From: a virus
Lineage: Duplodnaviria; Heunggongvirae; Uroviricota; Caudoviricetes
IMG/VR virus record: IMGVR_UViG_2734482784_000002
Coordinates: 1 to 19,757 of that record
Length of the DNA: 19,757 nucleotides
Direction: 5' to 3' (one strand)
Shown: positions 881 through 2,146 of the stretch, piece by piece
Position numbering within the stretch: position 1 is the stretch's first letter
Layout: the number at the start of each line of letters is the position of its first letter
The notes under the pieces: generated by a model
Told to the model about the DNA's origin: nothing
Databases searched by the model: none
Seen by the model: only the letters and a program-made list of their open reading frames with translations
Position numbers and translations under genes: made by a program

Positions 881-2146
881 TCAACGACCAATCACCACAA
901 CCTGACCACCGTCCCCCTCGTCTGCCGTGCTGATCTCCTGAGAAGCCACCCGCGACCCCACGCGCATTTCACCGTACAGAACAGGCAGAACATTGCCCTG
1001 GGCAACCATGTTATCCAGTGAGGAGAAATAGGTGTTCTGCTTACCGTTATCCGTTGTCTGTGTACGGGGAGTTCTGGCTTTCGGTGCCAGCATCTGGGCC
1101 ACACCACCGAGCACCATACTGGCACCGAGAGAAAACAGGATGCCGGTCATACCACCGGCCCCAATGGCTGCCCCCCACGCTGCAAGGGTGGCTCCGGCAG
1201 TAAAGAATGATCCGGCAATGGCGGCTGCTCCCAGGACAATCTGGAATATCGTAGGTGCTTCATCTGCTGCGGTAATGCTCAATTGAACCTGGATAATGTC
1301 GGTATTACCCCCATCAGGCCATTCACCTGACACCTGAACCTTCGGGAAACTGAAAGTGTATGCCCCCTCTCCATTCGAAAGCGTGAAGCTGAACGGAACT
1401 GTTTCTCCAGTCAGTGTTTTACTCCAGATTTCCCACGCGGCTTTAGACCATGAAAGCGTCACCGTACCGGACGGTGTAAAAGTAGTCGGAATATTTGCTC
1501 CTGCATAAGGCGAGCCAGTCCCGATACAACGCTGTGTCTGGAGTTTGTTATCGAACTGAATATCAAAACTGTCGATACAAAAACCGTTACCTCCGGCAAC
1601 ACCATTCAGGCTTACTGCTGAAACCTCCTTAAACGAATAACGTAGCTTTCCTGCACTATCCACAGGTTCGCCTTTGATAAAATTCGTATCATCGGCCTTT
1701 GATTCCCAGTCCAGTCCGGCAAAGGTTACGGTCGCTGTAATATCGCCGTCGTTAGGGATCTGCATTTTCCATGAGCCAACCTGCGCTCCTCTGACGACAG
1801 AGGCAATTCCGACATCGGACGCATAGGTCGCCAGAGAAAATGTTATTCGCTCATTCCCCATTGTCAGAGAATCGCCTGACCATTCCGCGCCGAAACAGGA
1901 TGCAAGAAAATCATCATGTTGACCCCAGCGAAATTTGGTACCAACATCACCGCCGACATCCACAGTGCCAGGCGTCGCCCCCTGAGCCATCCGGGAGCCA
2001 CCAATCTCATTATTTTCGCTTTTATTCTGGGTGGGTTTTACTCCCCAGCTTGTGCGTTTTAATAAACTCCAGTCACCACTTGCTGGCGTAGTGCCTGCAA
2101 CCGTCTCCCGGATAAATGCCGAGATAACCTTTGCACCTGAACTCAC
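881..2146 (-). CDS. Chimeric tail ORF: tail-tube-like N-terminal ~300 aa fused in frame to the C-terminal ~121 aa of a lambda gpI-like tail tip assembly protein
   Basis: The last 121 aa (FQIVLGAAAIAGSFFTAGATLAAWGAAIGAGGMTGILFSLGASMVLGGVAQMLAPKARTP...VLPVLYGEMRVGSRVASQEISTADEGDGGQVVVIGR, nt 881..1246) match the recalled lambda gpI C-terminus. The N-terminal part is unrelated; calling it a major tail protein rests on its position after the head-tail joining genes. Confidence 0.55.
   Translation of the reverse strand: MSSGAKVISAFIRETVAGTTPASGDWSLLKRTSWGVKPTQNKSENNEIGGSRMAQGATPGTVDVGGDVGTKFRWGQHDDFLASCFGAEWSGDSLTMGNERITFSLATYASDVGIASVVRGAQVGSWKMQIPNDGDITATVTFAGLDWESKADDTNFIKGEPVDSAGKLRYSFKEVSAVSLNGVAGGNGFCIDSFDIQFDNKLQTQRCIGTGSPYAGANIPTTFTPSGTVTLSWSKAAWEIWSKTLTGETVPFSFTLSNGEGAYTFSFPKVQVSGEWPDGGNTDIIQVQLSITAADEAPTIFQIVLGAAAIAGSFFTAGATLAAWGAAIGAGGMTGILFSLGASMVLGGVAQMLAPKARTPRTQTTDNGKQNTYFSSLDNMVAQGNVLPVLYGEMRVGSRVASQEISTADEGDGGQVVVIGR

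Follow-up and report, generated by a model that had tools for sequence, protein, structure and literature searches.

Does the 421-residue open reading frame (ORF) at positions 881-2146 of this viral contig encode a tail protein of the kind used by intact phages, or is it the product of a deletion that happened to leave a reading frame open? The question was raised by a sequence-only reading of the window, the term used here for the whole 19,757-nucleotide stretch of DNA that was analysed. The ORF described in that reading exists and its coordinates are right; its strand, which had not been given, is the minus strand. Read from the sequence, it starts with GTG at 2146-2144 and stops with TGA at 883-881, and it is composed of, and preceded by, the following features:

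881-2146, minus strand: chimeric ORF of 421 aa, tube residues 1-300 joined to gpI-type residues 70-190 (sequence, Pfam, homologue alignment)
1247-2146, minus strand: tail-tube-derived part, codons 1-300, with a complete Phage_tube_2 domain; the native protein has 320 aa (Pfam, phage homologues)
884-1246, minus strand: gpI-derived part, codons 301-421, a Gly/Ala-rich hydrophobic stretch and the C-terminal plug region (homologue and structure matches)
2152-2157, minus strand: Shine-Dalgarno sequence AGGAGG of the tube gene, kept, 5 nt before the GTG (sequence read directly)
2173-2565, minus strand: tail terminator gene, directly upstream, the native neighbour of the tube gene (Pfam PF13554 and the annotation of the reference prophage L001, described below)

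The N-terminal domain, which had been called unrelated, turned out to be the upstream tail tube protein without only its last 20 residues. The sole Pfam domain of the ORF is a complete Phage_tube_2 domain (PF18906, E 3e-31), with fusion residues 4-293 covering positions 1-266 of the 266-position profile at 109.3 bits against a cut-off of 27. Residues 1-300 are 98-99% identical to the 320-aa tube proteins of Salmonella phage SPF_0923 and Escherichia phage vB_EcoS-666R9. In the native tube proteins of intact phages, the sequence ...APTI is followed by TRKKxSPAAVIAKASAEAIS, and it is this native C-terminus that is absent from the fusion, its 20 residues being swapped for gpI sequence. The setting of the tube gene is altered as well: the terminator gene is still found upstream, and the chaperone and tape measure genes are gone. 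Homology of the N-terminal part to the N-terminus of gpI itself, which would have spoken against a deletion, does not apply to a tube protein, and PF06805 (Lambda_tail_I, the N-terminal domain of gpI) was found neither in the fusion nor in its last 121 residues at E values up to 1. The intact 190-aa gpI homologue matches this family at 2.9e-18.

The description of the last ~121 residues as gpI-like proved accurate. The closest intact prophage encodes a gpI homologue of 190 aa, and its residues 70-190 are the same, position for position, as fusion residues 301-421; with residues 103-223 of lambda gpI, 119 of 121 positions (98%) agree. The solved structures are matched at E 3.2e-70 (PDB 8iyk, chain I) and 2e-50 (9e7m). 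Submitted alone, these 121 residues yield no Pfam family, because PF06805 models the N-terminal domain of gpI only. The segment begins with a 55-residue uncharged, Gly/Ala-rich hydrophobic stretch (residues 301-355) with two hydrophobic windows, and the hydrophobic GILFSLGASMVLGGVA segment is among the C-terminal 121 residues. For the equivalent region in lambda, hydrophobic character or a predicted transmembrane segment has been described (PMC10721106, PMC12617516). Residues 135-223 of lambda gpI make up a trimeric plug in contact with gpJ and the C-terminal end of the tape measure (PMC10721106); the plug lies in the tail-tip lumen, the part of the tape measure that it touches being the C-terminal helix, and entry of its hydrophobic part into the outer membrane has been suggested (PMC10721106, PMC12617516). 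The gpI segment retained in the fusion is exactly the part present in lambda virions. A membrane-anchored hybrid protein, which the sequence-only reading had raised as a possibility, may be made from the ORF.

The origin of the two parts can be followed base by base in an intact Rac-type prophage located at the same chromosomal site of E. coli 13P484A, which was used as the reference (locus L001). There, the genes follow one another as tail terminator, tube, ydaY, an unannotated T-like stretch, tape measure, M, L, K, I, J and lom; ydaY is a tail assembly chaperone according to PHROGs, and K combines JAB and NlpC/P60. Positions 654-1248 of the window correspond to 5152-5746 of L001 with 99.7% identity on the same strand, and positions 1240-5925 correspond to 12001-16685 with 99.9% identity, order and strand being kept. 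The flanks are colinear with those of the intact relative, where they are separated by 6,262 bp, and exactly these 6,262 bp are absent from the window. The missing DNA begins with the last 20 codons of the tube gene, continues through ydaY, the T-like stretch, the tape measure gene, M, L and K, and ends with codon 69 of I. The sequence-only reading had proposed an in-frame deletion between the tail tube gene and the middle of I, with loss of chaperones, tape measure and minor tail genes, and this is precisely what is seen against L001. The protein junction, ...ITAADEAPTI followed by FQIVLGAAAIAG, had been placed near DNA positions 1247-1260; it is exact to the residue, and the DNA crossover is the TA recorded here:

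1247-1248, no strand: deletion junction 1, a 2-nt TA overlap of the tube-side and I-side parents (base-by-base comparison)

Beside this TA, the parents share an imperfect TCTGG..TA similarity. To judge from the junction sequence alone, a single illegitimate recombination event, at the 2-nt TA overlap and with the nearby imperfect TCTGG match, would have removed the 6,262 bp, spanning tube codon 301 to codon 69 of the gpI-type tail-tip gene. The two reading frames would have matched by chance, an outcome expected one time in three. Translation of a hybrid of the complete tube domain, the hydrophobic segment and the gpI plug region would now begin from the ribosome-binding site and start codon that belong to the tube gene. 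The fusion ORF is very probably a deletion scar of this kind in a decaying Rac-type (lambdoid) prophage beside ttcA, restricted to one shallow E. coli lineage.

A natural two-domain tail protein, in which intact phages would use a tube domain together with a gpI-like plug, has practically no chance of being the right explanation, even if related arrangements exist. A gpI-like C-terminal module is placed at the end of longer proteins in PHROG families phrog_28576 and phrog_35166, and native tubes of the same family often bear a C-terminal Big_2 Ig-like add-on. However, apart from the allele's own three-member cluster no protein spans both parts, and no phage record does: the two-part architecture is absent from 50,697 phage records, where both halves always match separate genes. 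A search of 5.8 billion protein clusters returned 528 homologues, and the full length was covered only by that one 90%-identity cluster, whose three sequences differ by one residue each. The remaining homologues cover about 71-74%, corresponding to the tube part, and have either 306-320 aa or, with a C-terminal Big_2, ~390 aa. The natural domain architecture for which the sequence-only reading had left room has no full-length homologue beyond its own cluster in these phage records, in 5,426 complete E. coli genomes, in 142 IMG/VR contigs carrying either flank or in the protein clusters. In addition, the halves are 99.7-99.9% identical at the DNA level to separate genes lying 6.3 kb apart in an intact relative, and the locus is without every gene needed to use a tail protein.

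The fusion junction is also rare at the level of DNA. None of the 5,426 complete E. coli genomes contains it, and neither do the GTDB species representatives in an exact-match scan, the latter result being expected because the allele is strain-level. The IMG/VR contigs that contain one flank (62 on the tube side and 80 on the I side, 142 together) all continue natively without the fusion; since 0/62 and 0/80 of them break at this endpoint, junction 1 is a one-off event. The absence of the junction from all complete RefSeq E. coli genomes and the length of the overlap, just 2 nt, are what could be said for an assembly artefact, in which two contigs were falsely joined at a short repeat. Such an artefact is scarcely credible here, because an overlap of 2 nt is far too short to mislead an assembler, and the identical junction recurs, as protein and as DNA, in assemblies made independently by different projects and with different assemblers, where the contigs reach 4.59 Mb.

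The exact fusion protein was retrieved from 45 contigs (NCBI drafts, Logan assemblies and an ENA metagenome), the longest of 4.59 Mb. The carriers include four NCBI drafts, two Logan runs and one ENA metagenome, with the same flanks; GCA_958328025.1 and GCA_003399865.1 are two of the carrier isolates. Five further contigs encode the single-residue variants Q415R and A401V, both changes falling in the gpI-derived part, which brings the carriers to about 50 near-identical E. coli assemblies. Seven carrier loci compared with the window show at most 4 substitutions (some with an additional 1-nt gap) over 8-12 kb, and all three deletion junctions of the window are common to them. The ORF is intact in every carrier found, which is uninformative on selection, because an exact match to the protein was the criterion by which carriers were found and the clade is close to clonal. 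The fusion is thus real, an allele that belongs to an E. coli lineage both young and nearly clonal, and it represents neither a fault of assembly nor an architecture that has been conserved. In the source records, the protein is named either 'tail assembly protein' or 'hypothetical protein'.

A more indirect route to the same junction would be an exchange between two lambdoid prophages, with the I-J end imported and the intervening DNA lost afterwards. Near-identical I-J segments occur in several lambdoid prophages, with a median of 2 and up to 10 matching places per E. coli genome, and the I-J flank of the window is only ~95% identical to another intact Rac prophage (L011). Strain 13P484A alone, however, supplies all flanks in the same order and at the same locus, with 99.9% identity on the tube side, 99.7% for I-J and 100% for sitA. 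Because one genome is enough to account for all flanks, a simple deletion is sufficient and more parsimonious, and the exchange is left with a small chance of being correct.

The simple deletion is one of three in this prophage. The window is recognized as Rac-type by intR at its end, recE, recT, the RalA sRNA within the ralR/RalA region, a lysis cassette, trkG and ynaK, and it shares 96-99% identity with the Rac prophage of E. coli K-12. Positions 11240-19757 align to L011 up to intR, which in L011 lies beside ttcA. The features that delimit the remaining deletions, together with the native spacer that follows the fusion, are these:

842-863, minus strand: GC-rich hairpin with a run of T after it, native to the spacer that separates the I stop from the J start (sequence; inside the 99.7% match to L001)
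644-820, minus strand: J remnant, the first ~55 codons and then junk to a stop (sequence, L001 match)
654-656, no strand: deletion junction 3, J codon ~56 joined to nt 656 of the convergent sitA, with a TCA overlap (comparison)
1-732, plus strand: truncated sitA, native to nt 656, running on into antisense J (comparison)
5924-5925, no strand: deletion junction 2, ParB-like ynaK joined out of frame to a DUF6651 gene, with a TA overlap (comparison)

Downstream of the fusion, on the same strand and after the hairpin, a lambda-type J start is found (MGKGSSKGHTPREAKDNLK..., ATG at 820). At junction 3, the loss amounts to 10,992 bp and includes J, lom, tail fibre remnants, sitD, sitC, sitB and the 3′ end of sitA. 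At junction 2, ~6.5 kb are lost, namely the rest of ynaK, a TAGT-family gene, the small and large terminase, the portal, the minor head protein and the 5′ end of the DUF6651 gene. The overlaps at junctions 2 and 3 are 2-3 nt long, and none of the three window junctions is present in complete E. coli genomes. One of the two same-strand junctions in the window is in frame, which fits the chance of one in three.

As a result of the three deletions, the remnant is left without complete packaging, head or tail gene sets. With K, L and M deleted, only the J start follows the fusion, and no complete K-to-J tail-tip set exists. In the absence of packaging machinery, a tail initiator and a tape measure, the remnant cannot make particles. 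The loss of the chaperones, tape measure, M, L, K, most of J, terminase, portal and minor head protein leaves every partner of the fusion absent, so the fusion is highly likely to be an inert relic with no role in assembly. Against inertness stand the intact translation signals and the nature of the retained gpI segment, the virion part of the protein. The expression of the ORF would also be restricted by its position. A terminator-like hairpin follows trkG upstream of the fusion ORF, and it is the only useful item from the promoter and terminator scans, in which counts were not above those of shuffled controls. Lying past this hairpin and deep in the late operon, the ORF would be transcribed only under Q-dependent late transcription.

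The same intact start signals, together with the kept hydrophobic stretch and the 98% identity of residues 301-421 to lambda gpI 103-223 with its trimeric plug at 135-223 (PMC10721106), are the basis on which the fusion could be regarded as co-opted. In that case, a tube-tagged, membrane-active gpI plug able to bind J and H would hinder related lambdoid phages in assembling their tails or in DNA entry, and would be kept for this reason. This explanation is very improbable: no sign of age or purifying selection is seen in a nearly clonal clade, the only two variants both change amino acids in the gpI-derived part, chance alone would place one join in three in frame, and the gene lies past the terminator-like hairpin of trkG, deep in a normally silent late operon. 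An accidental effect is given equally little credit. Here the tube-tagged plug would be built into the tail tips of lambdoid phages, whether co-resident or superinfecting, or compete for them, or would sit in the envelope, and act as a dominant-negative anti-phage factor to the benefit of this lineage. The reading of the fusion as an inert deletion scar is to be preferred, and the locus is a case of ordinary prophage decay, not of a new protein architecture.

A separate observation concerns the right endpoint of junction 2, which is a nucleotide-precise, one-directional deletion hotspot in the ParB-like ynaK. The intact ynaK reads ...TTATTTCCTGTA immediately before the hotspot and CCGGGCAAAACATCC... 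immediately after it (between positions 22498 and 22499 of L011). The right-hand sequence occurs 185 times in complete genomes and in contigs from metagenomes and IMG/VR; among these occurrences, 11 different junction classes have their break precisely behind the hotspot TA, and a twelfth class, with a sitA partner, is found in strain O177:H21. The endpoint is common to at least 11 independent deletions. About a dozen other junction classes are spread over the next 400 nt, five of them within 22 nt of the hotspot. The left partners are distributed across the left arm of the prophage and comprise the small terminase, the minor head protein, the DUF6651 gene, the capsid start, a site 445 bp away, lom, stfR, the end of tfa and sitA; every one of them ends in TA, extended to ATA in 7 of 11. 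In strain CP66-6, which carries a Rac scar, the capsid gene has a ynaK-derived start. No deletion in the opposite direction was observed among 155 occurrences of the left-hand sequence.

Several candidate causes of the hotspot were considered and rejected. A resident IS element is not supported by the left flanks, all of which map to prophage DNA, with no IS among them, and no terminal inverted repeat was found for a trkG-carrying transposon. The fold z-score of -0.8 gives no indication of a local hairpin, no Chi site lies within about 1 kb, and the boundary of the AT-rich trkG insert is about 500 nt distant. A presumed likeness to Gin/Hin-type crossover sites was dropped, as the crossover position does not fit. 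Phage GenBank records beginning at the hotspot were not found, and a literature search returned no description of a deletion hotspot in ynaK or Rac. The terminase is of headful type (Terminase_6N/6C with a Terminase_2 small subunit), and late transcription runs toward the deleted side of the hotspot. To go by other headful phages, packaging would presumably run the same way. The best guess is that a precise pac-type cut or nick may be made at the hotspot and the unpackaged end rejoined through 2-nt overlaps.

The fusion matters little on its own. Its use lies in being a clean and resolved example of how prophage decay yields in-frame chimeric ORFs that annotation pipelines name as normal proteins, and it can serve as a caution for surveys of domain architecture and as a marker of the lineage. 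The ynaK hotspot is more interesting than the fusion and is the item of the window that deserves follow-up. With one of the three junctions using a shared, precise endpoint, deletions in Rac-type prophages are not all random, and the hotspot points to a site-specific break or nick, possibly a packaging cut, as a driver of prophage decay.

One of the closest known systems is the cryptic Rac prophage of K-12, which belongs to the same prophage family and occupies the same site (intR by ttcA), with recE, recT, ralR/RalA and trkG in common. It has decayed by internal deletions as well, leaving truncated and abutting genes such as ynaK next to ydaY and the tape-measure fragment ynaA next to lomR. 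The K-12 prophage differs in that its terminase-to-tube and M-to-J blocks were lost at other breakpoints, while a tape-measure fragment and tail fibre genes were kept, and no fusion of tube and I was formed. Intact Rac-type prophages and phages (13P484A, Z142-4, vB_EcoS-666R9, SPF_0923) are 97-99.9% identical in DNA over the retained genes and supply both parents of the fusion, but in them tube (320 aa) and I (182-190 aa) are two genes, set apart by ~6 kb of tail genes. An independent in-frame fusion is known from the Rac remnant of E. coli QML220614, where it is annotated as an ordinary CDS; it differs from the window fusion in containing only the first 24 codons of the tube gene, in having a tail fibre gene as the partner, and in its breakpoints.

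Compared with lambda gpI, the tail tip assembly or 'insertion' protein (PDB 8iyk, 8k35, 9e7m), the C-terminal 121 residues of the fusion are 98% identical with the plug region included, whereas the PF06805 domain is replaced by a whole tube protein, the genes K, L, M and H are gone, and only ~55 codons of J are left. The tube protein gpV of lambda carries an Ig-like C-terminal domain. The Big_2-bearing relatives of the tube protein likewise consist of a tube domain with a C-terminal extension of ~80-120 residues. These natural extensions, however, are soluble Ig-like domains that are contiguous with the tube in intact phages, whereas the extension in the window is an unrelated tail-tip fragment acquired through a deletion.

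Rac-type prophages have a deletion hotspot within the ParB-like gene ynaK, which is nucleotide-precise and acts in one direction (window 5924-5925, corresponding to 22498-22499 of L011, the intact prophage of strain Z142-4). The endpoint ...TA/CCGGGCAAAAC is shared to the nucleotide by no fewer than 11 independent classes of deletion, drawn from E. coli genomes, metagenomes and IMG/VR contigs; the count is 12 if the deletion of strain O177:H21 with its partner in sitA is included. The left partners are scattered at distances from 445 bp to ~30 kb, and every one of them is located on the terminase/head/tail side; opposite-direction deletions were found in none of the 155 occurrences of the sequence left of the site. 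The search for an IS element, an inverted repeat, a hairpin or a Chi site gave no explanation for the hotspot, which may be a pac-type cut or nick.

One of the hotspot junction classes is also present on the 145-kb plasmid pABWA45_1 (NZ_CP022155.1), which bears a fragment of a Rac-type remnant (L335), adjoined by IS26 and Tn3-family remnants.
91094-95474 of the plasmid: tail fibre, tfa, ynaK', trkG and lysis genes

In the window, the deletion at this site (junction 2) is an out-of-frame join, which gives rise to two ORFs. The start of the second one is placed by the gene callers at a GTG lying directly on the junction.
5721-6344, minus strand: 207-aa ORF, with 140 aa of YnaK followed by 67 aa of junk
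5230-5922, minus strand: DUF6651 ORF, truncated at the N-terminus

The third deletion fuses nucleotide 656 of the convergent sitA to approximately codon 56 of J. Because of this event, sitB, sitC and sitD were lost and sitA was truncated in the lineage of the window. The affected sit genes serve iron/manganese uptake.
654-656: junction of the third deletion, with a TCA overlap and 10,992 bp lost
1-732: truncated sitA

Chimeric coding sequences that arose in frame from deletions, and are annotated as normal proteins, also occur in other Rac remnants.
L017 (E. coli QML220614), 1-1133: fusion of tube and tail fibre, keeping the first 24 tube codons
L016 (CP66-6_Sichuan), 1899-3035: capsid gene with a start derived from ynaK DNA

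Another fusion born from rearrangement may be P0005, a 472-aa tube protein from one NCBI contig, which is 95% identical and carries an additional PF24489 domain N-terminal to Phage_tube_2. The native tube gene itself carries at its 3′ end a poly-A run of 7-9 A on the coding strand, the length of which differs among relatives. Out-of-frame copies are found in the intact locus L001, where the gene is annotated as 'frameshifted', and in five IMG/VR contigs. This variable run immediately adjoins the tube-side deletion breakpoint.
L001, 11990-12003, and IMG/VR loci L073-L134: poly-A run, 5 nt from the tube-side breakpoint of junction 1

In L011, ynaK is separated from the small terminase gene by a gene of the TET-associated glycosyltransferase family (PF20691, E 6e-36), and at another place the prophage has a gene for a DNA cytosine methyltransferase (21205-22137 and 31573-32613 for the pair). 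The presence of both genes hints that Rac-type phages modify their own DNA.

Two tRNA genes of the window sit in the interval that separates the Q-like gene from the lysis cassette, and an antitoxin sRNA lies opposite ralR.
9937-10090, minus strand: tRNA-Gly(tcc) and tRNA-Thr(tgt)
18023-18201, minus strand: RalA antitoxin sRNA

The gpI-like C-terminal module of the 421-aa fusion is matched by the C-terminal ends of phrog_28576 (399 positions) and phrog_35166 (322 positions), function-unassigned PHROG families which are longer than the module. Therefore, this plug module has N-terminal partners besides the domain found in lambda gpI.
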